Positions 6,113 through 40,018 of a stretch of 64,000 nt of DNA are shown one piece after another. A program made the translations under genes and the position numbers. The notes beneath the pieces are model-generated. The model made no database searches. It was given only the letters and a program-made list of their open reading frames with translations, and had not been told where the DNA came from. This DNA is from Thermodesulfobacteriota bacterium (GTDB lineage Bacteria; Desulfobacterota_D; UBA1144), in NCBI GenBank assembly GCA_030835345.1, contig JAURPH010000007.1:13542-77541 (forward strand). Reading direction: 5' to 3'. How positions within the stretch are numbered: position 1 is the first letter of the stretch; every line of letters starts with the position of its first letter.

Positions 6113-7063
6113 ATGAGTAAATTTCTTAAGAAAATAAAAAAAGCTTTAATAATTGGAATTGGGGGTGGAGCAGATATTGTTGGAACAATACCAATGAAAT
6201 CATATCTCGAAGAGCATGGAATAGAATGTTATTTAGGGGGATTGCCATGGGAAAGGTATTCAATTGATCCTTATCCAGGACCTAGAAGGTTTAGTGAAAT
6301 TCAAAAAAAGAGGAGTTTTAATAAAAGTATTTGTTTTATAACAGATAAAACTCTAACTAAAGATGGTCTTCAATTCAGTGAATCTAAAGTGGCAAATTTT
6401 GTACAAAATAAAATTATTTTCGTTAATATTTTTAATTCAATTAGAAGTATTGCAGCTGACTTAATAGAGTTTATTAATGATAAAAAAATTGATTATGTAG
6501 TAGGTGTCGATGTTGGCGGCGATGTTTTAGCTTTGGGAGATGAAAAAGGATTGGCAAGCCCTTTAGCTGATTCAATAATGTTGAATGTACTTAAAATTAT
6601 TGAAGCTAAATGTTTAACACACCTTGGGGTTCTGGGTTATGGAAGTGATGGGGAATTAAAAATAAGTGAAATTAATAAATGTATGGCAATAGCATCTTCA
6701 AAAAAAGGCCTAGTAGGGTCTGTGGGACTTTCTACGGATGCATATAAAACAATGAAGGAAATAGTAAAAAAAGTAGAGACTGATGCAAGCAGAATTCCTT
6801 TACTATCTTTTGAGGGTTCTTATGGAAATCACCCCATAAGGAGAGGAAGAATTCAAGTTGAGGTCCATCCAATGTCTCAAATAACATTTTTATTTAGCCC
6901 CACAATTGTTTTTAAAAATTTATCGAACCCAGCAAGGCTTATATCTAAAAGCAAAAGTTTTTATGAAGCAAATGAAATACTGTTAACGAATAATATTTCT
7001 TCAGAATTCAATTATGAAGTTAAAAAACATATGGAAATTAGCTCATTAAATAATAAAGGATAA
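6113..7063 (+). CDS. Conserved hypothetical protein, tentatively DUF1152-like (glycine-rich GIGGGAD loop)
   Basis: 316 aa with N-terminal ALIIGIGGGADIVGT...GGLPWERYSIDPYPGPRRF. My recollection is that this matches the DUF1152 family pattern, but I cannot verify it. It has no TM segments. Its 3' end overlaps the convergent transporter gene by about 26 nt. Confidence 0.35.
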   Translation: MSKFLKKIKKALIIGIGGGADIVGTIPMKSYLEEHGIECYLGGLPWERYSIDPYPGPRRFSEIQKKRSFNKSICFITDKTLTKDGLQFSESKVANFVQNKIIFVNIFNSIRSIAADLIEFINDKKIDYVVGVDVGGDVLALGDEKGLASPLADSIMLNVLKIIEAKCLTHLGVLGYGSDGELKISEINKCMAIASSKKGLVGSVGLSTDAYKTMKEIVKKVETDASRIPLLSFEGSYGNHPIRRGRIQVEVHPMSQITFLFSPTIVFKNLSNPARLISKSKSFYEANEILLTNNISSEFNYEVKKHMEISSLNNKG

Positions 7064-10605: not shown

Positions 10606-11043
10606 TCAATTTTTAAAATTAGCCAATTCATTTTTGAATTCATTATAAAGGTACTTGCTAATTATAAAAGATAAAAAAACTTTATTTGAATTATCATACA
10701 AGCAGAATTTTAGGTCTTTCTTACTTAAAAATGAGTACATTTTATCAACATCCTCATCGTTGTTAATAGAAACCAAATGAGAAAATGATTCTATATTTAT
10801 ATGATTTTTAGAAAAAATTAATTTCAATTCAATAGTTGGAAAATCGCCTTGCATTACACTGTTAATTAAGAATTTAAAATCTAGAAGACCCAAATCTTGT
10901 ATATCATAAATTGAGGATGATTCTTTTTTGAATAGCATTATTACTTCATCTTTCAGATTTATGATTTTTGAACCTTCAACTATAAAGTCGAAATATCCAT
11001 TAAATTCATCTTCTGTTATTAATGCCCTTGATTTTTTTATCAT
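10606..11043 (-). CDS. Hypothetical protein (145 aa, no recognisable domain)
   Basis: Called from the ORF alone. AT-rich codon usage is consistent with the host. No motif is recognised. Confidence 0.3.
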   Translation of the reverse strand: MIKKSRALITEDEFNGYFDFIVEGSKIINLKDEVIMLFKKESSSIYDIQDLGLLDFKFLINSVMQGDFPTIELKLIFSKNHINIESFSHLVSINNDEDVDKMYSFLSKKDLKFCLYDNSNKVFLSFIISKYLYNEFKNELANFKN

Positions 11044-11096: not shown

Positions 11097-11303
11097 ATGA
11101 CAGCTATAGCTATTGCCTTAGGAATGATTGCTTTATTTTGGATGGCAGCAACTAATATTGGTGCTGATTCAGGATCTGCAGCAGATGCTGCAAGTGGAGA
11201 TGCCCCGTCACAGAGGCCTGCTTCAGACTCTTTAACAGATGGTACACCACCAACTGCTGATGGTTCAACAGACCAGTCTGAGTTTCAATCCGCGAAAAGT
11301 TAA
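11097..11303 (+). CDS. Small membrane-anchored protein with an acidic Ala/Ser/Asp/Gly/Thr/Pro-rich tail (68 aa)
   Basis: ATG at 11097 is preceded by a perfect AAGGAGG at 11083-11089, with 7 nt spacing. The product is MTAIAIALGMIALFWMAATNIG (one TM) followed by ADSGSAADAASGDAPSQRPASDSLTDGTPPTADGSTDQSEF. Local GC is clearly above the window background. Confidence 0.4.
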   Translation: MTAIAIALGMIALFWMAATNIGADSGSAADAASGDAPSQRPASDSLTDGTPPTADGSTDQSEFQSAKS

Positions 11304-11309
11304 ATAATT

Positions 11310-12239
11310 TTATCCAGCGAATGATTCAAAATGGATGAAGTTTTGTAGATTCAATATAGAGTCAGGAAGTGGTTCGTGCGTAAAATGCTGGGGACTAATT
11401 GTTCTTGCAATCAATTTGGTCCCTTCAATAATTCTCATAGCTGGTCTTGTATAGTAAGAATCAGCATCAACTATGTATACATTTCCCATATTAAATGCAG
11501 GTATTTTATTTAATTCTGTGTTATTTAATATGCAATCGATATCATTTAGAGTTTTTTCTATGTTCCAACCACAAGGCATTATAAATATAAAATGAGGAGC
11601 ATATTTTTTTATTTCATCCCAATCAACAATCCTTGATTTCTCATTACTCATGCTTAATCCACTTTCGCCGCCTGCAATTTCAATCATTTCGGGTACCCAA
11701 TGACCTGCAGAATATAATGGATCTAACCATTCCATTGCGAAAACTCTGGGTCTATCGATTATATCTTTTGTTGCATTTTTGATTTTATTAATTTGATTCA
11801 TAAATTCATTTTTTAAATCCTCGCCAGCCTTACTTACCGATAAACTATCTGCTAGCTTTGCTATTTCAGTTGGTATCTCTTTAAGATTGGATGGAGAATA
11901 ATCAATAATTTTTCCTTTGACATTTAAATCCAAAGTATCATTTCTTGAAACAGCACAAACACTACATGTCTCCTGGGTGATTATAAAATCAGGATTGAGT
12001 TCGGATATAAGCTCCTTATCAAGAATAAATGGAGATTTATTATCTTTTATTATTTTTTTTAATTCTTCATCAATTTCTTTACTAGAATTTGTTTCCTCGA
12101 GCTTAATCCTCGATGCAACTGGTTTTTCTTTAATACTGTCGGGATAATTACATTCTTCACTTATTCCGACAATTGAATCTGAAAGTCCTAATTCACATAA
12201 GATCTCGGTTGCCGCAGGCAAAAGGGATAAAATTTTCAT
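11310..12239 (-). CDS. btuF: ABC-transporter periplasmic binding protein, BtuF/FhuD (cluster A) family; probable cobalamin-binding protein
   Basis: N-terminal KILSLLPAATEILCELGLSDSIVGIS is a typical BtuF-like start. It lies immediately downstream of btuB, under the cobalamin riboswitch. Confidence 0.65.
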   Translation of the reverse strand: MKILSLLPAATEILCELGLSDSIVGISEECNYPDSIKEKPVASRIKLEETNSSKEIDEELKKIIKDNKSPFILDKELISELNPDFIITQETCSVCAVSRNDTLDLNVKGKIIDYSPSNLKEIPTEIAKLADSLSVSKAGEDLKNEFMNQINKIKNATKDIIDRPRVFAMEWLDPLYSAGHWVPEMIEIAGGESGLSMSNEKSRIVDWDEIKKYAPHFIFIMPCGWNIEKTLNDIDCILNNTELNKIPAFNMGNVYIVDADSYYTRPAMRIIEGTKLIARTISPQHFTHEPLPDSILNLQNFIHFESFAG

Positions 12240-12257: not shown

Positions 12258-14216
12258 TTATTTAAATGTGTCATATCTAAATCCAATCATTATTGTTCTT
12301 CCTGGTGATGTAAAATTTAAAATTTCTTCTCTTTTATCGTTAAAAAGATTTGAAACTTGTATAAATATTTTACTTGTGTGTAAATCATCTTTTTCTAATA
12401 AGTAGTCTCCATATAAACCAAAGTCCCAAAATGAGTCGTTATAAATTCTTGTCGATGAATTTTCATAATCCCATCTCCCTCCTGTATAGCTCGTATCAAG
12501 AGCTACAAACAAATCATTATGCTTTTTACTAATAATTAATCCACCACTAGTTTTCGGCCTTCTCAACAATGCTTCATCATCTTGCCAATTTGCAAAATTA
12601 AAAGAATTTTGTTGAACTACATTATTAACGTTTACGGCTTTTGTTTCTAGATAGGTAAACCAGTATTTAATGGAAAGTTGATTTTCTAATTTAACCAAAC
12701 CACTCGCCTCAATTCCCTGCGATTTTGCTTCATCTAAATTACCATAGGAAGGGCTTCCTCCTCTGTATGCAATCATATCATTTGTTTTGCTCTTAAAGGC
12801 TGTTAAAGATAATGCATATTTTGTATTTTCAAAATCAATTCCAATCTCGTAAGATTGGTTTTTCTCTGCCTTTAAGCCCGTTACACTGTATGTTTCATAA
12901 ATGCTTGGATACTTAATACCTTTACTAAATCCACTTCGAATTTTAATGGTTTCAGAAATATATTTTGATAAAAATACTGTTGGACTATATGTTGTTCCAT
13001 GATATTCATGATCATCTTTTCTAAAAGCGATATCAGCAAAGAAGTTCTCTTGAAAATTTAGTGCAAGCATTCCATAAATTGAATCTATATATGTTTCATG
13101 ACCATAATCTGTTGCGAATGAACTTGCATTCGCATGATAGTTACTTGTTTCATCTAAGTATTCGTAACCTACTTTTGCATCAACTGATATCGTTGAAAAT
13201 AAAGAATTTTTTATTTTGTAATAATAGTTATAGTTTTTCTTTTTTTCCCACCAATCAACATTTCCACTACCAGCATCTCTAGTAGCTCTTTTATTGAAAA
13301 AATATGAAAAATCAAATCCTATTAAGTTATCTTTATAAACTTCATAACTTGTATTAATGGACCTGCTATTTAAATGTCGCCAATCTCTTTGTGTACCAGA
13401 TGTGGAACTATATGTGCCTACTGTGCCCGTGCTACTAGTCGGATATCGAACTGTCGCCCATCTATCAGATATAAGTGTTTTTATCTGGAGCTTTTCATTT
13501 AATGCAGATAGATTTATTCCTGCATTCAAAGCTTTATTGTTATAAGCATCATTAAAAATCCTAAATCCATCATCATCAACTCTGTCATAAGAAAGCACAT
13601 AACCAATCAAAATATCATTTGACTGTTTATTGAATTGTCCGCTTATTGAAACAGCTTGTTCATTTGATAGGAATGTTCCACCATCAGTTTGCCCAGTAGC
13701 ATCTTTCTTAAAACTTTGGTTAATACCAAAGGATGACATAAGTGAAATTTGAGTTTTATTCGATGGTTTTTTGGTATTAATAATTATTACAGAGCCCAAT
13801 GCAGAAGATCCAAAAAAACCAGCCATTGGACCTCTCAAAACTTCAATGGATTCTATATTATTAATGGAGACAAATTCAAAATTGAAAGATCCACCAACAT
13901 CGTTATATTTAACACCATCAATAATTACTAAATTATGATCTGACTCTGAGCCACGAGAAAATACGCTTATTAATCCACCCCTTCCTCCTGTTTGCTTAAC
14001 AGATAGCCCTGGAACAAGTTTTAGTAAATCTCCAACACTTTGTGCCCCTGATGTTTTTATTTCATCTTCACTGATTATTGTTGCAGATCCACCAAATCTA
14101 TTTGTTTGGATTGTTGTATTTCCAATGGTTTTGGGATTTTTTAGCTCGATATCAGATGATATTGAGTAATTTGTTAATAATAATATGATCAAGAAAAATC
14201 TTAATAAAATGCTCAT
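12258..14216 (-). CDS. btuB: TonB-dependent outer-membrane receptor, vitamin B12 transporter BtuB-like
   Basis: Signal peptide, then a plug domain reading SGAQSVGDLLKLVPGLSVKQTGGRGGLISVFSRGSESDHNLVIIDGVKYND..IEVLRGP, close to the E. coli BtuB plug. A 22-strand barrel-sized C-terminal region follows. A cobalamin riboswitch sits in its 5' leader. Confidence 0.8.
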   Translation of the reverse strand: MSILLRFFLIILLLTNYSISSDIELKNPKTIGNTTIQTNRFGGSATIISEDEIKTSGAQSVGDLLKLVPGLSVKQTGGRGGLISVFSRGSESDHNLVIIDGVKYNDVGGSFNFEFVSINNIESIEVLRGPMAGFFGSSALGSVIIINTKKPSNKTQISLMSSFGINQSFKKDATGQTDGGTFLSNEQAVSISGQFNKQSNDILIGYVLSYDRVDDDGFRIFNDAYNNKALNAGINLSALNEKLQIKTLISDRWATVRYPTSSTGTVGTYSSTSGTQRDWRHLNSRSINTSYEVYKDNLIGFDFSYFFNKRATRDAGSGNVDWWEKKKNYNYYYKIKNSLFSTISVDAKVGYEYLDETSNYHANASSFATDYGHETYIDSIYGMLALNFQENFFADIAFRKDDHEYHGTTYSPTVFLSKYISETIKIRSGFSKGIKYPSIYETYSVTGLKAEKNQSYEIGIDFENTKYALSLTAFKSKTNDMIAYRGGSPSYGNLDEAKSQGIEASGLVKLENQLSIKYWFTYLETKAVNVNNVVQQNSFNFANWQDDEALLRRPKTSGGLIISKKHNDLFVALDTSYTGGRWDYENSSTRIYNDSFWDFGLYGDYLLEKDDLHTSKIFIQVSNLFNDKREEILNFTSPGRTIMIGFRYDTFK

Positions 14217-14317
14217 AGTAACTCTCCTTAAGTTACTTCGAACGATTAAGAAAATAGATTATAAATAAATTTATAAAATTATTTTTCCTTTAACCTCGAA
14301 GAAAAATTATTAAATGT

Positions 14318-14468
14318 TTTTGGCAGGTCTTCTGACTTTAAGCACTACAGTTGCCTTCCCATTTGTATTAAACAGTGGCATATTAACTGCAATTTTTTTG
14401 CTTATTACAGCAGCGGGTCTGTGATGGACTTTCACCATACTTCCCTATTAAACTCTTGCGAGTACCGA
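14318..14468 (-). ncRNA. Cobalamin (AdoCbl) riboswitch in the btuB 5' leader
   Basis: The minus-strand RNA reads UAAUAGGGAAGUAUGGUGAAAGUCCAUCACAGACCCGCUGCUGUAAUAAG ... AUAUGCCACUGUUUAAUACAAAUGGGAAGGCAACUG ... AGACCUGCCA. This carries the conserved AAUAGGGAAG/GGUGAAA-UCC core, the CCCGC-CUGUAA element, the B12 box GCCACUG and the GGGAAGGC/ACCUGCC pairing elements. Confidence 0.8.
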
Positions 14469-14495
14469 TTATGAATTATCATGTAGAATTAAGTC

Positions 14496-15422
14496 ATGTC
14501 AAGAAAATATAGAGTTGTAACCCTTGGTGGAGGAGTAGGTGCAGGTAAATTTCTTGAAGGACTTTACGAATTTAAAAATGAAATAAATTTGAACCTGATT
14601 ATAAACACCTCAGACGATATAGACATTTATGGTGTAAGAGTTAGCCCTGATGTCGATACAGTTATTTATTGGCTTTCTGATAATATTGATCGAAAAAAAG
14701 GTTGGGGTATAAAAGGGGATACTTTAAATCTTGTAAATGAATCATCATCGAATTGGTTTAATCTAGGCGATTTAGATTATCAATATAATAAAAAGAAGAA
14801 AGTTGATATGGATAAAGGTATGACTTTACAAGAAAATATAAAATTTAGATGTAAAGAATTAGGTTTATTTGATGTAACTATTCTTCCCATGACAAATGAT
14901 AAAGTTGAAACTTATATTTTAACTTCCGAGGGAAAAATGCATTTTCAAAAATATCTTATCAAAAATAAAATGTTACCAAAAGTTTTAGGAATTGAATTTC
15001 AGAATATAGCTAATGCAAGTCCAGCTCATTCTTTGCTTGATTTGGTCAAAGAATCAGATTTAATTATTTATTGTCCTAGTAATCCTCTTATAAGTATTGA
15101 TCCAATATTAGAGGTAAAAGGTATTTATGATGAAATTCAAATGTCAGATTCAAAAAAGGTCGCAATCTCACCAATAGTAAATGATAAAGCATTTAAAGGA
15201 CCGATTCTTAACTTAATGAAACTTAAAGGTTTAGAATTATCTGTTTTAGGTGTTGCAGAATATTATAAAACAAAAGCTGATTTTCTATTAATCGATAATT
15301 CAGATAAACATTACGAGAAAAGAATCAAAGAATTTGGTTTAGAGCCAATTGTTACAAATATAAATATGACATCCAAAGATGTCTCTATTAATATATCAAA
15401 AATTATTTTAGATTTGTTATAG
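14496..15422 (+). CDS. cofD: 2-phospho-L-lactate transferase CofD (F420 biosynthesis; CofD/UPF0052 family)
   Basis: N-terminal VVTLGGGVGAGKFLEGL glycine loop. The VSPDVDTVIYWLSDNIDRKKGWGIKGDT block matches the CofD family. It is followed directly by cofE, cofG and cofH. Confidence 0.7.
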   Translation: MSRKYRVVTLGGGVGAGKFLEGLYEFKNEINLNLIINTSDDIDIYGVRVSPDVDTVIYWLSDNIDRKKGWGIKGDTLNLVNESSSNWFNLGDLDYQYNKKKKVDMDKGMTLQENIKFRCKELGLFDVTILPMTNDKVETYILTSEGKMHFQKYLIKNKMLPKVLGIEFQNIANASPAHSLLDLVKESDLIIYCPSNPLISIDPILEVKGIYDEIQMSDSKKVAISPIVNDKAFKGPILNLMKLKGLELSVLGVAEYYKTKADFLLIDNSDKHYEKRIKEFGLEPIVTNINMTSKDVSINISKIILDLL

Positions 15423-15429
15423 TTTAATT

Positions 15430-16176
15430 ATGAATAAAGTTGAACTCATACCAGTTCAAGGCCTCCCAAGTATTGATCCTGGCGACAATATCCCTCTTAT
15501 TATTTCGCAAGCCTTAGAAGAAAATAATTTGATTCTAAATCAAAATGATATTCTAGTAATAGCTCATAAAATTGTTTCAATTTCCGAAAAGAGATTGGTT
15601 AATATACAAGAAGTTAAAGCAGGGAAAAAAGCAATTTTAATGGCTAAAAAATGTAAAAAGGATCCAAAGCTTATTCAATTAATACTCGATAATGCAAAAG
15701 ATGTGCTTAGAATTAACAAGGATTTTCTAATAACTAGAGATTTAAATGGTATTGTTGCTGCCAATTCAGGAATTGATCAGTCAAATTATTTCCACAAAGA
15801 TTTTGCAGTTCTACTTCCTAAAAATTCTAATAAATCAGCTAAAAAAATATCTCTAGATTTAAAAAAAATCTTAAATAAAGACATATCAGTAATTATAACA
15901 GATAGTGTTGGAAGGCCTTGGAGAAATGGACTAACCCAAATTGCACTAGGTTCTTTTGGTATTCCCTCCATTGTTAGTTATAAACAAGATCTCTATGATA
16001 GCCCACTTTTTGATACAGATATACCCATAGTGGATGAGCTTTGTTCTACTGCTGGTATTCTAATGATTAAAGATAAAGGTATTCCTGTAGTTATCATAAG
16101 GGGGTATAATTATTCTTTTATCAAACAAGGTTTAAGGAACATTATTAGGTCTGAGAAAAATGATATCTTTAAGTAA
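15430..16176 (+). CDS. cofE: Coenzyme F420-0:L-glutamate ligase CofE
   Basis: 248 aa. N-terminal VELIPVQGLPSIDPGDNIPLIISQAL...DILVIAHKIVSISEKRLVNI fits the CofE N-terminus pattern. It is part of the cof cluster and overlaps the cofG start. Confidence 0.65.
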   Translation: MNKVELIPVQGLPSIDPGDNIPLIISQALEENNLILNQNDILVIAHKIVSISEKRLVNIQEVKAGKKAILMAKKCKKDPKLIQLILDNAKDVLRINKDFLITRDLNGIVAANSGIDQSNYFHKDFAVLLPKNSNKSAKKISLDLKKILNKDISVIITDSVGRPWRNGLTQIALGSFGIPSIVSYKQDLYDSPLFDTDIPIVDELCSTAGILMIKDKGIPVVIIRGYNYSFIKQGLRNIIRSEKNDIFK

Positions 16177-17419
16177 AATTTATAATGACTTTTTAAAATA
16201 TAATAATTCCTCGGAATTGCTAGAACTCCATTCTATTCCTTATAACAATTATGATTCTATCCCAAATAAATTTCTGACTGTGCTTGAAAATTACTTAGAC
16301 GATAACGAACTAGATAGAGAACAATTAAAAATCTTAACAAGTATGGAAATCGAACATGTTTCTGTCTTGATGGCGGTGGCCAATTATATAAGAAGAACAA
16401 AAAAGGGAGATTTAATTAGTTTCTCCAAGAATGTTTTTATTCCGCTAACTCAACTATGTAGAGATCAATGTTCATATTGTACATTTAAAATTGAACCAGG
16501 CGAAGGTGAATTACTTGTCCCACCAGAGAAAGTTTTAGAATCTGCAAGAAAAGCTGCTCAGGCAGGATGTACTGAATTATTATTTGTTTCTGGTGATAAG
16601 CCTGAAATTATTTATGATGTATATAAAGATAAGCTCCAATCTATGGGATATAGTTCAACTGCGGACTATATGATTTCCATGAGTGAAATTTGTTTGGAAG
16701 AAAATATATTTCCACATTCAAATTTAGGTATTGCTAATCAAGCAGAATTGAAAAGATTTAGAAAATCCAACCCTAGTATGGGCCTAATGTTGGAAAATAT
16801 AAGTGAGAGATTGATGAAGCCAGGTATGGCACATCATAAATGCCCTGACAAATATCCAAAAGCCAGAGTTAATACTATACTTACAGCAGGTAAACTTAAA
16901 ATTCCATGGACATCTGGCATTCTTATTGGTATTGGTGAAAATTGGGACGAAAGAATTGATTCGATTCTAGAATTGAGAAAAATTAATGATTTATATGGTC
17001 ATATCCAAGAAATAATAATTCAAAATTTTAGCCCCAAACCAGGAATTAAAATGGAAGGACATCCTGTTCCTACTGATTTAGATATGATCAAAACAGTAGC
17101 ACTATCAAAATTAATCATGGGTGATGCTGTTAGTATTCAGGTTCCCCCAAACCTTAATTCGAAGTCATATATGTTACATGTTTTTTCTGGGGTAAGTGAT
17201 CTTGGGGGTGTTTCACCTCTAACAATTGATTTTGTTAATCCAGAATCACCATGGCCGCAAATTGATATAATGAAAAAAACTTTAACTGAATTTGGCTTTA
17301 CTCTCAGGGAGAGATTACCAGTATATCCAGGTTATTTAAAAAGTGAGTTTATTGAAGATCATATATACCAAAGGGCAATTAAATTTGTTGACGAAACAGG
17401 GTTTGTAGCTGAAAATTAG
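16160..17419 (+). CDS. cofG: FO (7,8-didemethyl-8-hydroxy-5-deazariboflavin) synthase subunit CofG, radical SAM
   Basis: CRDQCSYCTF radical-SAM cluster motif as in the CofG consensus (CxxxCxYCxF). 419 aa. Confidence 0.8.
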   Translation: MISLSKIYNDFLKYNNSSELLELHSIPYNNYDSIPNKFLTVLENYLDDNELDREQLKILTSMEIEHVSVLMAVANYIRRTKKGDLISFSKNVFIPLTQLCRDQCSYCTFKIEPGEGELLVPPEKVLESARKAAQAGCTELLFVSGDKPEIIYDVYKDKLQSMGYSSTADYMISMSEICLEENIFPHSNLGIANQAELKRFRKSNPSMGLMLENISERLMKPGMAHHKCPDKYPKARVNTILTAGKLKIPWTSGILIGIGENWDERIDSILELRKINDLYGHIQEIIIQNFSPKPGIKMEGHPVPTDLDMIKTVALSKLIMGDAVSIQVPPNLNSKSYMLHVFSGVSDLGGVSPLTIDFVNPESPWPQIDIMKKTLTEFGFTLRERLPVYPGYLKSEFIEDHIYQRAIKFVDETGFVAEN

Positions 17420-17428
17420 GTTTTTATT

Positions 17429-18616
17429 ATGGAAGATGCTCTAAAGAAGATTATAGATAAGATTGAAGGTAATAGGATCAAAGGTTTAGATTCAAGCCTA
17501 TCTAGTTCCTCGTCTGAAATTGCAAAAATTATAAACAAGCCATTTGAAAAGAAAGAAATTAGTGAAGAAGAAGCAGTAAAACTTTTTTTGATTGAGGATT
17601 CAGATGAGCTTGCCTCACTAATAATTGCAGCAGATAATGCAAGAAAAGAAGATGTTGGGGACGATGTAACATACGTAGTCAATAGAAATATAAACTTTAC
17701 AAATATTTGTAATACCTATTGTGGTTTTTGTAACTTCATGGCTCCAGAGGGAGACTCTAGGGCATATTTTCTAACTATGGATGAGATTAAGGAAAAGGTT
17801 CTTGAAGCAAAAGATAATGGTGCCACAGAAGTCTGTATGCAAGGTGGTATGCACCCTGATATTGATGGGAATTTTTATGTTGAGATTATTAAAAGTGTTA
17901 AAGAGGCTGTTCCTAACATGCATACGCATTGCTTTTCACCTTTTGAAGTTCATTATGGGGCAGAAACGCTTGGAATTCCTATTCTAGATTTTGTTAAAAT
18001 GCTCAAAGATGTCGGACATGGTACTTTCCCTGGAACGGCTGCAGAAATTTTAAGTGAAGATGTAAGGAAAATTATTGCACCAGGGAAAATTACAACTGAC
18101 CAATGGGTGAATACAATTAAAGAAATACATAGAGCAGGTATGAAAACTACTTCAACTATCATGTATGGACATGTTGACAAGCCTCATCACTGGGCAAGAC
18201 ATTTTGAAGTCATAAGAGAAATACAAAAAGAAACTATGGGAATTACTGAGTTTGTTCCACTAAGGTTTATTCCCTGGGATACAAGAATATTTAAGAAAGG
18301 TATATCTAGAGAAGGCCCTAGTGATTTGGATCAATTGAAAATGTATGCAATTTCTAGGCTTTATTTCAGAGGATTGATAAAAAATATACAAGTGTCCTGG
18401 GTAAAACAAGGGCCAGAATTTGCTCAATATTGTCTAACTGCAGGAGCCAATGATTTTGGCGGTACTTTAATGGAAGAAAAAATTACGACTGCAGCAGGCG
18501 GTAAGTTTGGGCAATATTTCGCACCTGAAGATTTTAGAAAATTAAGCTTCGAAATAAATAGAAGACCCGTAGAAAGATCTACTTCTTATGAATATTTGAA
18601 AGTTTTTGAAAATTAA
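17429..18616 (+). CDS. cofH: FO synthase subunit CofH, radical SAM
   Basis: NICNTYCGFCNF motif (CofH-type CxxxCxFCxF). 395 aa. Sits immediately after cofG. Confidence 0.8.
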   Translation: MEDALKKIIDKIEGNRIKGLDSSLSSSSSEIAKIINKPFEKKEISEEEAVKLFLIEDSDELASLIIAADNARKEDVGDDVTYVVNRNINFTNICNTYCGFCNFMAPEGDSRAYFLTMDEIKEKVLEAKDNGATEVCMQGGMHPDIDGNFYVEIIKSVKEAVPNMHTHCFSPFEVHYGAETLGIPILDFVKMLKDVGHGTFPGTAAEILSEDVRKIIAPGKITTDQWVNTIKEIHRAGMKTTSTIMYGHVDKPHHWARHFEVIREIQKETMGITEFVPLRFIPWDTRIFKKGISREGPSDLDQLKMYAISRLYFRGLIKNIQVSWVKQGPEFAQYCLTAGANDFGGTLMEEKITTAAGGKFGQYFAPEDFRKLSFEINRRPVERSTSYEYLKVFEN

Positions 18617-30579: not shown

Positions 30580-31446
30580 TTAAATATTAACTAATTCTAT
30601 ACCACTAGCATTTAAGTCTTTTTTTAAGTTCATGTCAACAAGGTTATGAGAAATTATCTTTTTTACTTTCCCACCTAAAAAATACTTTAAATCAATTTTT
30701 TTATGATTACAAAAATCATAAATTTTTTTGATATTATTGCTATCAACAAATAGATATGTTGGTATTGTTTCATTTATGTTCTCAATAAATTCCAACCAAT
30801 TTTTAAAGTTGATAAATTTTTTTTTATTCTTTAATAATCCAGAACAAATAGAATTACCAAATTTGATATTATTTTGATAAAAAATATTAACAAATTCAGT
30901 TTCTGAAATTTCTGAAATGACTTTGTGAAGTTGTTTTTCATCGAAGTTTAAACTGTTATTAAGATCGAATACCATTAATTTGTTGATTTTGGATTCATCC
31001 AATTTTTTCTTTGACATCATTCCAAATTTATTAATTGTTTTAAATGTTATTAAATTTTTATTTCCTATTTCTTTCTTAATTGAACTGTCTAATGAAATTA
31101 CTGAGAAAAAATCATCAGTATTAATCCTAATTGATTCTTCAATTTGATCTATGACCAATATGTCAAAATTTTTATTTAAATTATCAATATTTGAATCATA
31201 ATTTATTGAACAATTTAGAGCCTTTAAGCAATTAAGAGTTAAAAAATTTTCTAATGTTGTTGAACCACAACTGAATACTTTTTTATTCTCAAACCCATTT
31301 GTGGAGAAATATGCAATTGTATTATCTAGCGAATGTTTTATATCAGAGTAAGTATGCTGTTTCCAGTTCATTCCATCTAAAAACTGATAAGCGAGTGCCT
31401 GGCCATTATTTTTTAAAGCATCCTGTAATGAATTTAAATTTTGCAT
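30580..31446 (-). CDS. Hypothetical protein; N-terminal part is reminiscent of the N-terminal subdomain of acyl-CoA synthetases but lacks the AMP-binding P-loop
   Basis: 288 aa. GQALAYQFLDGMNWKQHTYSDIKHSLDNTIAYF...NKKVFSCGSTTLENFLTLNCLKALNCSIN resembles the start of adenylate-forming enzymes. No (S/T)SGTTGxPKG motif anywhere. Confidence 0.3.
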   Translation of the reverse strand: MQNLNSLQDALKNNGQALAYQFLDGMNWKQHTYSDIKHSLDNTIAYFSTNGFENKKVFSCGSTTLENFLTLNCLKALNCSINYDSNIDNLNKNFDILVIDQIEESIRINTDDFFSVISLDSSIKKEIGNKNLITFKTINKFGMMSKKKLDESKINKLMVFDLNNSLNFDEKQLHKVISEISETEFVNIFYQNNIKFGNSICSGLLKNKKKFINFKNWLEFIENINETIPTYLFVDSNNIKKIYDFCNHKKIDLKYFLGGKVKKIISHNLVDMNLKKDLNASGIELVNI

Positions 31447-32861: not shown

Positions 32862-33868
32862 GAAATTTAAGATTAGTCCAAGAGAATTTCGGATCAATAA
32901 GCCAAATTAAACTTAAAGAATCAGAAGTTCCAATACCTAATGATAATGAAGTGTTATTAGAAGTATTTAGCATTGGTGTTAGTTTTGCTGATGTTTTAGC
33001 TTATGAAGGTAATTATCAAGATAAGCCTGATCTACCATTTGTCGCGGGATTAGAGGTCTCTGGAGTTGTTGTAGCTAAAGGTAAAGCGATTACTTCATTA
33101 GATATTGGAGACGAAGTTATTGCTCTTACTAAGTGGGGAGGTTTTTCTGAGTATGTAACAGTCGATGTTAACTATGTTATTAAGAAGTCTAGCAATATTC
33201 CTCATTCAATAGCCTCAACGATTATAATAAATTATGGTACTTCAATTTATACGATTGAGGATAGATTGGCTTGTGAAGAGAACTGCAGAGTTATAATTTT
33301 AGGGGCATCAGGAGGAATCGGGTTAGCATGTATTGAATTGCTAAAGATTAAAAATGCAGAAATAACAGCAGTAGCTTCATCTCAAGATAAATTAAATGAG
33401 TGTAAAAAGTACGGAGCCACAAATTTGATTCTAAGAGAACCAGATAAGTCTTTAAAGCAAATCCTTAGAGATAATAAAGTTAAAAAAGTCGATTATATTA
33501 TAGATACTATTGGTGGACAAGAAACAATTGATTCTTTGAGTTTCTTAAATTGGGAAGGCTCATTAGTGCCAATGGGTTTTGCATCTGGCGATATTTCTAA
33601 TATCCCTGCGAATCTTATATTATTAAAAAATATTTCAATTGTTGGAGTTTTTTGGGGACCTTTTGCAAGGGGCAACAATAACTTTAACCTCCATTCAATT
33701 AGTAAAATTAATGATTACTATGATAAAGGTCTTCTCAAAATTGCAAATCCTACAAAGGTAAAATTCGAAAATTATTTAGATGCTTTTAAAGCCATTAAAG
33801 AAAGAAAATCAATTGGCAAGCTTTGTTTGATAACAGAAAAATATAATCAAAAAAAAGGAAGGCCATAA
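32858..33868 (+). CDS. MDR-family NADPH:quinone oxidoreductase / zinc-type alcohol dehydrogenase-like protein
   Basis: GroES-like N-domain followed by a Rossmann ILGASGGIGLACIELLK. Confidence 0.7.
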   Translation: MRNLRLVQENFGSISQIKLKESEVPIPNDNEVLLEVFSIGVSFADVLAYEGNYQDKPDLPFVAGLEVSGVVVAKGKAITSLDIGDEVIALTKWGGFSEYVTVDVNYVIKKSSNIPHSIASTIIINYGTSIYTIEDRLACEENCRVIILGASGGIGLACIELLKIKNAEITAVASSQDKLNECKKYGATNLILREPDKSLKQILRDNKVKKVDYIIDTIGGQETIDSLSFLNWEGSLVPMGFASGDISNIPANLILLKNISIVGVFWGPFARGNNNFNLHSISKINDYYDKGLLKIANPTKVKFENYLDAFKAIKERKSIGKLCLITEKYNQKKGRP

Positions 33869-33889
33869 GACCTTCCTTTCAATTTTTTT
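33854..33889. terminator. Bidirectional rho-independent terminator between the convergent qor-like gene and atpE
   Basis: Perfect 9-bp stem AAAGGAAGG / CCTTCCTTT around an 8-nt loop. It is flanked by an A-run upstream and a T-run downstream, so it reads as a hairpin plus U-tract on both strands. Confidence 0.6.
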
Positions 33890-34199
33890 ATATTTTACTC
33901 TGTAATAAGAATGTTATAGCAAGTGCATAAATGACAAGAGACTCGATTAGAGCCAAACCAATAATCATTGGTGTTTGAATTTGTCCAGCTGCACCAGGAT
34001 TTCTACCGATGGCATTTAATGCAGCATCCATAGTTTTACCTTGTGCAATTGCACCTCCTGCAGCAGCTATACCAATTCCTAGTCCAGCACCTAAGGCTAG
34101 TCCAGAAACAGCATCTCCACTTGCTGCAGCATATACTTCCGGTGAAAGAAGAAACATTACTGCTAACATAGAAAAAGCAAAAAGTGAAAAGTTTCTCAT
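33888..34199 (-). CDS. atpE: F0F1 ATP synthase subunit c, with about 25-aa N-terminal signal-peptide-like extension
   Basis: Hairpin [52 protein letters not shown] carries the ion-binding carboxylate E in helix 2 within an ESLVIY (E-S-x-x-x-Y) context. N-terminal segment reads [24 protein letters not shown]. Confidence 0.85.
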
Positions 34200-34222
34200 T
34201 GTAGTCCTCCTTTAAAAATTCT

Positions 34223-34924
34223 TTAATGATCGTGACTTGTTGATAATGAAATATAAATACTAGATAAAATTGTAAAAATAAATGCCTGTAAAAACGAAAC
34301 AAAAACCCCTAGCCCTATAAATATTGCAGGTACAACATAGGGTGTCAGATTTGAGAAAATTTGAAGGACTAAATGATCACCCGTCATATTCCAAAACAAT
34401 CTCAATGAAAGAGAGGCGGGCCTAACAAGGTGACTAATAACCTCAATAATAATCATTAATGGTGCTAAATAGATAACTGGTCCCATAAAATGCTTTAAAT
34501 ATCCGACTCCATGTTCTTTGAATCCCATATAATTATATGTAACGAAAATAACTGTTGCACAAGCAAGAGTCGAGTTTAAATTCTGAGTAGCTGGATAAAA
34601 GCCAGGAAATACTCCTAATAAGTTCGAAAAGAATATAAAGAAGAATGATCCACCTAGTAATGGCAAATATTTTTTTGCTTTTTCCTCAGTTCCGAAAATA
34701 TCAGTCAATAATTTTAATAAAAAATCTAGGGTTAAAAATTCAAATAAATTGGATAATGAAAATTTAGAACTTGGTATTAAAGATGAATCTCCAGTGGTTT
34801 TCGCTCTGACCTTAAGAGATACTAGGATTAAAAAAAGCACCACAATACCTGACCCAATAATATGGTCATATTGATTAACACCTATTAGTTCCGTCCATTG
34901 GGCATGTTCTAATGCTGCGCTCAT
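34223..34924 (-). CDS. atpB: F0F1 ATP synthase subunit a
   Basis: Conserved Arg motif LSLRLFWNMTGDH (compare E. coli LGLRLFGNMYAG). 233 aa, polytopic. Confidence 0.85.
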   Translation of the reverse strand: MSAALEHAQWTELIGVNQYDHIIGSGIVVLFLILVSLKVRAKTTGDSSLIPSSKFSLSNLFEFLTLDFLLKLLTDIFGTEEKAKKYLPLLGGSFFFIFFSNLLGVFPGFYPATQNLNSTLACATVIFVTYNYMGFKEHGVGYLKHFMGPVIYLAPLMIIIEVISHLVRPASLSLRLFWNMTGDHLVLQIFSNLTPYVVPAIFIGLGVFVSFLQAFIFTILSSIYISLSTSHDH

Positions 34925-34928
34925 AATA

Positions 34929-35255
34929 TTATTTACCTTGGATTAGTAGAATAAACACAATTAAAATTACACTAAAACCAGTCAAAAATCCAATTAAGTT
35001 GATTGATAAATATTTAACCAAATAAAGTGTGACTAATGCAAGTATGGTGATTTTTAAAATTGTAGTAAAAAAAGGAATAAATTTACTTTTATTACTTGAT
35101 ATGAACAAATTTGAGATTGTCTTTACCCCAATGGAATTGATATATGAAAGAGTAGATCCATAGAAAAAACCCTCAATAAAATCAACACTTTTATATAGAT
35201 ATATACAATATGAGGCAATAATAATAAGCGATCCGATTCTTAAAAAATTTTTCAT
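34929..35255 (-). CDS. atpI: AtpI-like small membrane protein (ATP synthase protein I)
   Basis: 108 aa with three to four TM segments. Called from position, immediately upstream of atpB, as in alpha-proteobacterial atpI-B-E operons. Confidence 0.4.
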   Translation of the reverse strand: MKNFLRIGSLIIIASYCIYLYKSVDFIEGFFYGSTLSYINSIGVKTISNLFISSNKSKFIPFFTTILKITILALVTLYLVKYLSINLIGFLTGFSVILIVFILLIQGK

Positions 35256-35455
35256 TTTTCCTTTTTATCAAAATTATTGATGATTTTAAACATCAAATAA
35301 AACCCTCCAATTGTTCCTAGAATTATACCCACAATAGAAAACAAAGATTCTGTTTCAAGCTTAGAGTCCAAAATGCTACCTAAAAACATACCACCTAATA
35401 TAGATGAAGCTAATTCAGTTCCAACAATAAAATATTTTAACCAGGGATTTCTCAT
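35252..35455 (-). CDS. atpZ: AtpZ family protein (putative F0F1-ATPase accessory subunit, PF09527-like)
   Basis: 67 aa. VGTELASSILGGMFLGSILDSKLET plus a second TM, typical of AtpZ/ATPase_gene1 proteins. Confidence 0.5.
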   Translation of the reverse strand: MRNPWLKYFIVGTELASSILGGMFLGSILDSKLETESLFSIVGIILGTIGGFYLMFKIINNFDKKEK

Positions 35456-36807
35456 AAAATTTTATTCAAAGCCTTGTTACAGATTTCTGCCGTTCTTTCA
35501 ATATCCTCATTCGTATGTGAATCAGAAATGAATATTGTTTCATATTGAGAAGGCGGGAACATAATGCCATTGTCTAGTATAGTTTGAAAAAATTTGCCGT
35601 GATTTTTTAGATTACAATTATTTACATCATTAAAATTTGTTGGCTCTTTATCAGTAAAAAAAATTGTTAACATTGAACCTAGTTGGTTAATATGGATACC
35701 CTTTTTATGGTTATCTTCAATTAAAGTTTTTAATTTTTTTGCTTTATTATTTAAATTTAGGTAGATTTCGGAACTTTTTTCAATTAAAAGTTCAAGAGTT
35801 TTTATTCCTGCAGCAACAGCAACTGGATTTCCTGATAATGTACCAGCCTGATAAATATCACCAGATGGAGACATTTTTCCCATTACATCTTTTCTTCCTC
35901 CAAATGCTCCCACAGGGAATCCACCTCCTATTATTTTACCAATACAGGAAAGGTCTGGCTTAATGCCATAAAAGGATTCTGCACCACCAAGGCATAATCT
36001 AAATCCGGTAATTACCTCGTCAAAAATTAATAAACAATTATTTTCATCACAAATTTTTTTTATTTTTTTCAAAAAACCTTCTTTTGGATAGATTAATCCC
36101 ATATTGGCAGGAACAGGTTCTATTATTATTGCTGCAATTTTATTCTTATATTTATTAAAAATTTCTTCTACATTTTTAATATTATTGTATTCCGCTACTA
36201 AGGTATGTTTTGTAAAGTCCTTTGGAACACCTGGTGAAGATGGTTCTCCAAAGGTTGAGAGGCCAGAACCTGCACTAACCAGTAGATGATCTGCATGACC
36301 ATGATAACACCCTTCAAATTTAACTATTTTATCTTTATTCGTGAAACCTCTTGCAAGTCTGATTGCACTCATAGTTGCTTCAGTACCAGAGTTTGTAAGT
36401 CTAACCATTTCCATCGATGGCATTAGCCTTGAAATTAATTTAGCAATTTTAATTTCTCCCTTGTGGCATGCACCATAAGTGGTTCCTTTTTCCAGAGCAT
36501 CTATTGCGGCATTTTTTATTTCAACATTAGCATGACCAAGTATTAAGGGACCAAATGAGGATATGTAATCAATATATTTATTATTATCCTCATCTTCAAT
36601 ATATGCACCATAAGCTTTTTTTATATATCTTGGATTACTACTAACAGCTTTAAAAGACCTTACAGGACTATTAACACCACCTGGTATGAAACTTAATGCT
36701 TCGTTAAACAATATTTCTGAATTTTGATTTTTTTTCATATAAAAGACAAGAATATCATCTATATTATATTTGTGTATGGAAAAAATTAGTATCTTATCAC
36801 CAGCCAA
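35452..36807 (-). CDS. hemL: Glutamate-1-semialdehyde 2,1-aminomutase (start probably MKKNQ at about 36741)
   Basis: Class III aminotransferase with HemL-type N-terminus LFNEALSFIPGGVNSPVRSF and the PLP-Lys region. Confidence 0.9.
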   Translation of the reverse strand: MAGDKILIFSIHKYNIDDILVFYMKKNQNSEILFNEALSFIPGGVNSPVRSFKAVSSNPRYIKKAYGAYIEDEDNNKYIDYISSFGPLILGHANVEIKNAAIDALEKGTTYGACHKGEIKIAKLISRLMPSMEMVRLTNSGTEATMSAIRLARGFTNKDKIVKFEGCYHGHADHLLVSAGSGLSTFGEPSSPGVPKDFTKHTLVAEYNNIKNVEEIFNKYKNKIAAIIIEPVPANMGLIYPKEGFLKKIKKICDENNCLLIFDEVITGFRLCLGGAESFYGIKPDLSCIGKIIGGGFPVGAFGGRKDVMGKMSPSGDIYQAGTLSGNPVAVAAGIKTLELLIEKSSEIYLNLNNKAKKLKTLIEDNHKKGIHINQLGSMLTIFFTDKEPTNFNDVNNCNLKNHGKFFQTILDNGIMFPPSQYETIFISDSHTNEDIERTAEICNKALNKIL

Positions 36808-37645: not shown

Positions 37646-37677
37646 AATTAGAAAAAAAAACTGTATTATCTATGGAT

Positions 37678-37748
37678 TGGCCCGTCGTCTAATGGCAGGA
37701 CTCTTGGTTTTGGTCCAAGCAATGGAGGTTCGAATCCTTCCGGGCCAG
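37678..37748 (+). tRNA. tRNA-Gln (anticodon UUG)
   Basis: Hand-folded cloverleaf. Acceptor TGGCCCG/CGGGCCA (7 bp). D-arm GTCT..GGAC. Anticodon stem CTTGG/CCAAG with loop TTTTGGT (U33, UUG). T-arm GGAGG-TTCGAAT-CCTTC. Discriminator G. A U-run follows directly. Confidence 0.8.
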
Positions 37749-37824
37749 GTTTTTTTACTTCCTTTTATATTGCATAAATAGTATAATAGGCAAGCAGTAT
37801 TTTGATTAGAAATAAGGATTTATA

Positions 37825-38965: not shown

Positions 38966-40018
38966 ATGGATAAGATTAAATTTGGACTTGTTCCCCCAAT
39001 GCCCGGGGCTGATTGTCAGGGTCTAGTAGATTTCTCAGTAAAAGCAGATAATATGGGTTTTGATAGTCTTTGGTTTCCTGATCATTTAGCTTTTATAGCT
39101 CCAAGTCCTGCATATGAGGCATGGACGATAGCTGCTGCAGTCGCCCAACAAACAAAAAATATAACAATTGGTACTACTTCTGACCCACATCGTAATCATC
39201 CTGCTGTCTTTGCCCAGAGACTTGCAACAGTAGATCATCTTTCTAAAGGAAGAGTTGCTCTTGGTTTAGGTGTAGGCGAGTCAATGAATACTGATGCTTA
39301 TGGTATTCCCTGGGATAGTCCATTCAAAAGAATGACTGAATCAATGGATATCATGAAGCTTTTATGGTCTACAAATGAAACAGTAAATTATAACGGCGAC
39401 TTTTTTAAACTGAAAGATGCTTCATTACTTTTAAATTTATATGAGGATAGACAAAGTGTCCCTTTTTATTTTGCAACACATACTGATAAAGGACTAGACT
39501 TGATTGGTAAATCTGGTGATGGCTGGATGCCATTGGACTTAACTCCAGGACTTTATAAAGAATCTCTAGATAAAATCGAAAAGTCAGCCTTGAATTCAGG
39601 AAGAGATATGAAAGAAATTGATACAACACTTTGGATTTTTACTTCTTTGGGTGAAAACGAAGATGAAGCCTATAAAACATTGGAGCCTTTTAGATATGTT
39701 TGTATAATGCAAGATCAATTAAAGAAAGCGGGTTATGATATCGAAATTCCTGATGAGTATAAAGGTTTGAATTACTTTAATATTACTCCTACAGATGAAC
39801 TAAGAAAACAAAAATTTAGAGATTTGGGTAAATTTTTCCCTAGAGAAGCAGTTATAGATTTTACAATTACTGGATCTAAGAAAGATTGTATAAAAAAGAT
39901 AGAAAAGTATGTTGATAAGGGTGTAAAGCATTTTGTACTGTTCCATTATTTTAGTCCTGATCCATCAAAGGCAATGGAAATCTACTCTAAAGAAATACTT
40001 CCTTACTTTAATTCTTAA
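38966..40018 (+). CDS. LLM-class (luciferase-like) flavin-dependent oxidoreductase, probably F420-dependent
   Basis: 350 aa TIM-barrel LLM protein. KFGLVPPMPGADCQGLVDFSVKADNMGFDSLWFPDHL resembles the N-terminus of F420-dependent Mer/Fgd/Adf-type reductases. A cof cluster is present in the same window. Confidence 0.7.
   Translation: MDKIKFGLVPPMPGADCQGLVDFSVKADNMGFDSLWFPDHLAFIAPSPAYEAWTIAAAVAQQTKNITIGTTSDPHRNHPAVFAQRLATVDHLSKGRVALGLGVGESMNTDAYGIPWDSPFKRMTESMDIMKLLWSTNETVNYNGDFFKLKDASLLLNLYEDRQSVPFYFATHTDKGLDLIGKSGDGWMPLDLTPGLYKESLDKIEKSALNSGRDMKEIDTTLWIFTSLGENEDEAYKTLEPFRYVCIMQDQLKKAGYDIEIPDEYKGLNYFNITPTDELRKQKFRDLGKFFPREAVIDFTITGSKKDCIKKIEKYVDKGVKHFVLFHYFSPDPSKAMEIYSKEILPYFNS

Follow-up and report, generated by a model that had tools for sequence, protein, structure and literature searches.

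A hemL-linked atpZ-atpI-atpB-atpE locus probably encoding the membrane-sector half of a housekeeping ATP synthase in a streamlined marine Dadabacteria member

Genes and features of the locus

The window, the stretch of DNA that was analysed as a whole, comprises 64,000 nucleotides (nt) of a Thermodesulfobacteriota bacterium (assembly GCA_030835345.1, contig JAURPH010000007.1, positions 13,542 to 77,541 of the forward strand). Within it, a group of four F-type ATP synthase genes was investigated, which a preliminary description had read as a partial F0 cluster, atpZ-atpI-atpB-atpE, lacking the b subunit and carrying an atypical subunit c. Four tightly packed open reading frames (ORFs) on the minus strand fill positions 33888-35455, and profile matches, supplemented for atpI by its orthologs and position, support these four identities. 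The features of the locus are the following.

35452-36807, minus strand: hemL, glutamate-1-semialdehyde aminomutase (PF00202, E 5.9e-74), directly upstream of atpZ and overlapping it
35252-35455, minus strand: atpZ, an ATPase_gene1-type small membrane protein of 67 residues (PF09527, E 1.9e-13, 50.7 bits against a gathering score of 26.6, profile positions 1-53 of 54)
34929-35255, minus strand: atpI, a uncI-type small membrane protein of 108 residues (PF03899, 19.9 bits, below the gathering score of 25.1)
34223-34924, minus strand: atpB, F0 subunit a, 233 residues (PF00119, E 1.3e-46, 159.6 bits; TIGR01131, 131.4 bits against a cut-off of 102.6)
34206-34212, minus strand: Shine-Dalgarno sequence AAGGAGG, located 6 nt before the start codon (ATG) of atpE, read from the sequence
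33888-34199, minus strand: atpE, subunit c, 103 residues (PF00137, E 8.4e-16, 58.4 bits against a cut-off of 24)
34128-34199, minus strand: signal-peptide-like extension, atpE codons 1-24 (MRN, a hydrophobic core and P-E-V-Y-A), with predicted cleavage after Ala24
33888-34127, minus strand: predicted mature part of atpE, 79 residues plus stop, a c-subunit hairpin with Q53, the R66-N67-P68 loop, E86, S87, L88 and Y91
33853-33880, both strands: hairpin resembling a bidirectional intrinsic terminator, common to atpE and the convergent dehydrogenase gene (12-bp stem, 5 G-C pairs, T-runs on both strands)

The two larger genes are assigned with little ambiguity. The product of atpB gives a full-length match above the curated cut-off and retains the stator arginine, R175, in the sequence LSLRLFWN, as is expected of an F-type subunit a; it aligns via the LSxRLFGN motif with structurally solved a subunits from chloroplasts and bacteria. 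The atpE product has the two-helix hairpin, the R-x-P loop and the helix-2 carboxylate of an F-type subunit c, and its matches in the Protein Data Bank (PDB) are F-type c subunits. Homologs of this protein were counted among the best 120 of 6,811 matches, and in these 120 the loop residues R66-N67-P68 are invariant. One of the homologs, P0012 (159 residues, on an 860-bp ENA contig), is predicted to have a fragment of a BCCT transporter (PF02028) fused to the mature c subunit; the fusion has probably arisen through misassembly or faulty gene calling on this short contig.

The two small genes were assigned from both sequence and position. AtpZ exceeds the gathering score of its family and heads the atp genes, and its orthologs occupy the equivalent position in related loci wherever they could be detected, by tblastn or in gene calls. 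Gene callers disagree on its start, some relatives being annotated with a 77-residue form in place of the 67-residue one. For AtpI, the location between the PF09527 gene and atpB corresponds to the canonical order. The assignment is strengthened because 8 of 12 positional orthologs match PF03899, the best with an E value of 4.7e-7.

The genes are closely spaced. The ATG of atpZ overlaps the hemL stop codon by 4 nt (ATGA, 35452-35455), atpI overlaps atpZ by another 4 nt, atpB follows atpI after 4 nt, and atpE follows atpB after 23 nt. The true start of hemL is probably Met24, near 36738. Co-transcription of hemL with the atp genes is probable, and the presence of hemL directly upstream in 13 of 13 related loci, with the junction around positions 9400-9700 of L001-L012 and L039, suggests that hemL-atpZIBE is a conserved transcription unit. 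At the other end, a Zn-dependent dehydrogenase gene converges on atpE and ends at 33868, 19 nt past the atpE stop codon, in line with the unrelated convergent gene described earlier as lying within 20 bp. The bidirectional terminator proposed between the two was also recovered, the hairpin scoring as a terminator on both strands. Four terminator-like sites were found in 3.5 kb, where 1.2 are expected.

A break between atpE and atpF

To assess the missing b subunit, the surroundings of the cluster were searched. No alpha, beta, gamma, delta, epsilon or b gene was found among the ORFs of at least 120 residues in the window. Probes for alpha and beta gave no tblastn match in the window either, and a crude filter for b-like ORFs, defined by an N-terminal transmembrane helix and a charged helical tail, returned none there. 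A set of 13 Dadabacteria-type loci (L001-L012, and L039 from Rifle groundwater) was then compared, the alpha and beta searches covering 10 kb on either side. The order hemL, (atpZ, atpI), atpB, atpE is found in all 13, with unrelated genes next and cca a few kb further on, and tblastn detected neither alpha nor beta within the 10-kb flanks of any of them. In loci of other phyla that have unified operons, identical probes readily detected both genes a few kb downstream of atpB. The break thus falls between atpE and atpF in the window and in its 13 relatives.

Such a break between c and b has been published as typical of delta- and epsilonproteobacteria, Aquificae, Acidobacteria, Deferribacteres and others (Koumandou & Kossida 2014, PMC4154653), and a separate 'c-a' unit has been described in a large share of Deltaproteobacteria (Niu et al. 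2017, PMC5709465). The absence of b, which the preliminary description had singled out as special, is therefore the published norm as well as a conserved feature of all 13 Dadabacteria-type loci. A similar correction applies to the leading gene pair, in which an alphaproteobacterial or N-ATPase accessory flavour had been seen. The inferred ancestral F-type order is I-sI-0A-0C-0B-..., in which I is the PF09527 and sI the PF03899 protein (PMC4154653). Because the succession PF09527-PF03899-a-c is the inferred ancestral start, the atpZ-atpI pair is an ordinary F-type operon head and not a mark of N-ATPases.

The lineage of the window is indicated by subunit a, the closest genomic matches of which are the marine metagenome-assembled genome (MAG) NAT53 at 98% identity and then MAGs of Thermodesulfobacteriota or Candidatus Dadabacteria at 58-78% (one genome per species). 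The GC content of the window is about 30% throughout. Marine pelagic Dadabacteria are described as having streamlined, low-GC genomes, about 1.2 Mb in size, in which gene duplications are few or absent (PMC8115339). A protein identical to the 103-residue subunit c recurs in 849 blocks of public assemblies. Contigs of 1.04-1.05 Mb are among them, and the window shares about 88% DNA identity with these contigs over 20 kb. In L001 and L081-L084, the genomes of which are likewise about 88% identical in DNA, the c gene differs by 3-4 codons, all of them synonymous. This indicates that the c protein is very strongly conserved, the putative signal peptide included.

The N-terminal extension of subunit c

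Subunit c was described earlier as a protein of 103 residues with a hydrophobic extension resembling a cleavable signal peptide, and residues 1-24 followed by AAS were found as given there. An alternative considered at the time, that the start codon is mis-called and translation begins at the internal Met11, was ruled out. The start at Met1 is well supported because the AAGGAGG sequence 6 nt before it and the same start codon are conserved in L001, L081 and L002, because independent gene callers on public assemblies give the same 103-residue product, and because only 6 of 120 homologs have Met11; the near-constant alanine before the predicted cleavage site (below) also argues against Met11. 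The extension is genuine and resembles a Sec-type signal peptide.

In the homologs, Lys or Arg is common at positions 2-3 and is followed by a hydrophobic core. Relative to the predicted cleavage site, Pro occupies position -5 in 71/120, Ala, Val or Leu position -3 in 115/120, and Ala position -1 in 117/120. A crude signal-peptide rule, which asks for Lys or Arg in the n-region, hydrophobicity in the h-region and a small residue at both -3 and -1, is passed by 111 of the 117 full-length homologs. Compared with L002, from a sister clade, 12 of the 24 signal codons are non-synonymous versus 16 of the 79 mature codons, and the architecture is kept. Diverging codons within a kept architecture are as expected of signal peptides. 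If cut after V-Y-A, the protein would retain 79 residues, a usual length for a c subunit, and signal peptidase I probably removes the extension at this site, judging from the residue pattern. Zhang et al. reportedly showed in 2013, by experiment, that subunit c of Aquifex aeolicus carries a cleaved signal peptide.

A different fate of residues 1-24 would be retention as a third transmembrane helix in mature c, which would alter ring packing or lipid contacts. The segment is indeed hydrophobic and of sufficient length to cross the membrane, and an N-in orientation would fit the topology of the hairpin. However, the near-invariant small residues at -3 and -1 and the helix-breaking Pro at -5, combined with free divergence of the rest, are the signature of a cleaved signal; the normal length of the 79-residue product and the reported loss of an equivalent peptide from the Aquifex aeolicus c subunit point the same way. 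Retention of the segment is therefore unlikely, and removal of the extension remains the preferred reading.

The best NCBIfam model for the precursor is PRK08482, a 105-residue epsilonproteobacterial c type, which aligned from residue 1 at 55 bits against a cut-off of 135. A long c precursor with an extension is widespread in this c-subunit clade, as judged from the homolog sequences, and all 120 closest homologs share it. The word 'atypical' thus holds only in comparison with the E. coli-type c subunit and does not apply within the lineage.

The ion-binding site

Because the motif E86-S87-L88-V89-I90-Y91 had been taken for a Na+-type site, the residues of the window c subunit were compared by BLASTP with those of Ilyobacter tartaricus c (PDB 1yce); the I. 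tartaricus query matched 1yce over its full length with an E value of 8.6e-50. The alignment pairs Q53 with Q32, E86 with E65, S87 with S66, L88 with T67 and Y91 with Y70. The helix-1 glutamine, the presence of which had been set down as a point to check, is thus there, and the residues of the motif read as they had been given. Of the Na+ motif of Mulkidjanian et al. (2008), Gln or Glu at position 32 is present as Q53, and Glu65, Ser/Thr66 and Tyr70 are present as E86, S87 and Y91, but the polar residue at the Thr67 position is replaced by L88. The same pattern is seen across the 120 homologs: the Q53 position is Gln in 115 and Met in 5, E86 is Glu in 119, S87 is Ser in 118, L88 is Leu in 119 and Y91 is Tyr in 118. 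The preliminary description had also stated what would speak against its Na+ assignment, namely missing helix-1 Gln and Thr ligands and a Ser that is merely typical of the lineage. In the event the Gln is present, the Thr67 position is Leu, and the Ser is lineage-typical.

The residue at the Thr67 position carries the assignment. All predicted Na+ enzymes have Ser, Thr, Gln or Arg there and H+ enzymes an aliphatic residue, and enzymes without one or more of the ligands are predicted to translocate protons only (Mulkidjanian et al. 2008, PMC2359735); the same ligand rule was applied in the ProAD survey of 2025 (PMC11738941). In Na+ rings, the coordination of Na+ is completed by a water molecule held in place by Thr67 (PMC3692424). 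An incomplete Na+ motif therefore predicts H+ coupling. The same Gln/Glu/Ser/Leu/Tyr set is found in the chloroplast c subunit of PDB 22vl, which reads GQG ... MESLTIY. Chloroplast ATP synthases are proton-driven. The enzyme of the window is thus, on its residue pattern, most likely proton-coupled.

The site was also found in the groundwater Dadabacteria of L039 and in the hot-spring bacterium HR37. Since these relatives are not marine, the ion site is not a marine adaptation, and a marine-specific adaptation to Na+ was ruled out by them and by the chloroplast sequence. The five Met variants belong to the nearest sister marine clade (P0007-9, P0011 and P0013; loci L002 and L003). There (L002, 10725-11036; L003, 10698-11039), GMGR replaces AQGK, and the LIESLVIY helix is unchanged. 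In the sister clade, as far as the sequences tell, a direct Na+ ligand, Gln, is swapped for the non-ligand Met with all else the same. The clade of the window and most of the other homologs retain Gln.

Coupling to Na+, or to both Na+ and H+, would require that Q53, E86, S87, Y91 and a backbone carbonyl bind Na+ at seawater levels without the water held by Thr67. Four of the five motif residues do align with I. tartaricus ligands and the habitat is marine; moreover, c-ring selectivity is graded, being set by how many polar groups there are and by the Na+/H+ ratio, and intermediate rings can use both ions (PMC3692424, discussing M. acetivorans). Yet the Thr67 position is Leu in nearly every homolog, although every predicted Na+ enzyme in the published surveys has a polar residue at this position; the site recurs in groundwater and in the chloroplast; the sister marine clade lacks the Gln ligand; and no Na+-pumping complex was noticed in the window. 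Na+ or dual coupling is accordingly judged improbable. The chance of even a minor Na+ contribution in seawater is slim. It is more improbable still that the site has intermediate selectivity, such that a sole ATP synthase would run partly on Na+ at the Na+ concentration and mildly alkaline pH of seawater and the Gln-to-Met exchange would mark a shift in ion preference between clades. Proton coupling is retained as the preferred reading.

Relation to N-ATPases

N-ATPases are defined by the gene order beta-epsilon-I-R-a-c-b-alpha-gamma, by the AtpR protein (PF12966) and by a delta subunit that is absent or fused (PMC4154653, PMC11738941). The order was found neither in the 64 kb of the window nor within 10 kb on either side in the 13 relatives, and neither small protein matched PF12966 at E <= 0.01. 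The N-ATPase models for subunits a and c scored far below their cut-offs (TIGR03306, 108.1 versus 302.1 bits; TIGR03322, 43.8 versus 130.85 bits). Membership was ruled out by the missing PF12966 match and these two scores. That the cluster belongs to an auxiliary or N-ATPase-like second enzyme and not to the main ATP synthase, as could be proposed from the leading pair of small membrane-protein genes, from the b and F1 genes not being adjacent and from the frequency of N-ATPases in former Deltaproteobacteria (PMC4154653), is extremely improbable in view of the unmatched order, AtpR and delta characters, the model scores, the housekeeping neighbours in conserved synteny and a genome of about 1 Mb with few duplications.

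Other features of the window

Several features lie outside the atp locus. A cobalamin riboswitch (RF00174, 95 bits) at 14305-14484 on the minus strand is located upstream of a TonB-dependent receptor gene (12258-14216) and a periplasmic-binding-protein-like gene (11310-12239). Genes for coenzyme F420 biosynthesis are present at 14496-18616 and 38966-40018, both on the plus strand, and encode CofD (PF01933), CofE (the F420 ligase, PF01996) and a pair of radical-SAM proteins, of which the second carries a CofH_C domain. A gene for a luciferase-like oxidoreductase adjoins rpoD. The use of F420 in a streamlined marine heterotroph may merit attention.

At 11098-11304 on the plus strand, an island of 43-50% GC stands in a background of 25-30%. 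It contains a 68-residue ORF with a strong AGGAGG ribosome-binding site, the product of which has one hydrophobic helix and then an acidic low-complexity tail of Ser, Ala, Asp, Thr and Pro; no Rfam match above threshold was obtained for the island (best E 0.17). A DUF1152 protein is encoded at 6113-7063 on the plus strand (E 9e-81). No Pfam match was found for the minus-strand ORFs at 30580-31446 (288 residues) and 10606-11043 (145 residues), the former of which is conserved in position in L081-L084. A single tRNA-Gln gene (TTG), at 37677-37749 on the plus strand, lies between ispE and rpoD.

Interpretation

The cluster is best explained as the membrane-sector half (AtpZ, AtpI, a and c) of the ordinary housekeeping F1F0 ATP synthase of a streamlined marine Dadabacteria member, a reading to which we assign a probability of about 0.8. 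According to this explanation, the atp genes would be split after atpE, with the b/b' and F1 genes placed elsewhere in the genome of about 1 Mb. Behind hemL, the four genes are arranged in frames that overlap or nearly abut, as far as the shared hairpin terminator. Subunit c would be made as a 103-residue precursor, the first 24 residues of which would act as a signal peptide of the Sec/SRP (signal recognition particle) type and help to place the N terminus on the outer face. Signal peptidase I would then probably cut after V-Y-A to give the 79-residue hairpin, as the sequence pattern and the reported Aquifex aeolicus precedent suggest. The assembled ring is predicted to bind its coupling ion at E86 with the support of Q53, S87 and Y91. 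Proton coupling is most likely because the fifth Na+-motif position is Leu, as in the chloroplast and cyanobacterial H+ rings with the same residue set.

Several points weigh against parts of this explanation. The AtpI protein of the window is itself under the Pfam cut-off for PF03899, and subunit c reached no NCBIfam equivalog cut-off. The cleavage of the precursor is deduced from a sequence pattern. With four of five Na+-motif residues present, a habitat of about 0.5 M Na+ and a graded selectivity, the ring may make some use of Na+. Finally, the notion of a sole housekeeping enzyme draws on the size of the genome and on precedent in the lineage, as no b or F1 gene was found in the window and no alpha or beta gene in the 10-kb flanks of the 13 related loci.

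The lack of a b gene, the length of subunit c and the Glu-Ser motif are all typical of the lineage and are covered by published descriptions. Beyond correct annotation, the importance of the locus is small. It does illustrate that an 'ES...Y' string alone is not a Na+ signature and that the Thr67-equivalent position also needs checking. It further illustrates that a stand-alone atpZ-I-B-E unit and a c precursor of about 100 residues are normal for a large clade that takes in the former Deltaproteobacteria, the Dadabacteria and their relatives. The c precursor, with its signal peptide 100% identical in protein sequence at about 88% DNA identity and present in hundreds of public marine assemblies, offers an easy target for work on signal-peptide processing or ion selectivity in an abundant, uncultured marine lineage.

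Comparison with known systems

The N-ATPase operons (atpDCQRBEFAG) have, like the window, a small PF09527-type gene ahead of a and c, but their gene order, AtpR, fused or absent delta and subfamily model cut-offs are all unmatched by the window cluster. The c11 rings of I. tartaricus and Propionigenium modestum (1yce, 2wgm) have the Gln of helix 1 and the Glu, Ser and Tyr identical to those of the window c subunit, whereas Thr67 is replaced by Leu88 and Gly68 by Val, with 38% identity across the hairpin. The H+ rings of chloroplasts and cyanobacteria (22vl, 4mjn/6fkf, 2wie) rank among the top PDB matches of the c as well as the a subunit; their c subunits differ in having no N-terminal signal peptide and in a loop that reads RQPE where the window has RNPG.

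The closest likeness in the precursor is to AtpE of Aquifex aeolicus and to c subunits of the PRK08482 type. These too are precursors of about 100-110 residues in which a hydrophobic core, preceded by a basic n-region, leads to an AxA-type site before the two-helix hairpin, but the window protein falls below the PRK08482 equivalog cut-off, which places it in a different subfamily. In gene organization, the locus resembles the split atp loci of delta- and epsilonproteobacteria, Aquificae, Acidobacteria and Deferribacteres, where the break likewise falls exactly between atpE and atpF and where PF09527 and PF03899 genes lead a stand-alone a-c unit amid unrelated housekeeping genes. Unlike these catalogued loci, the unit in the window is fused to the 3' end of hemL, whose stop codon overlaps the start codon of atpZ, and this linkage is conserved in the Dadabacteria loci examined.

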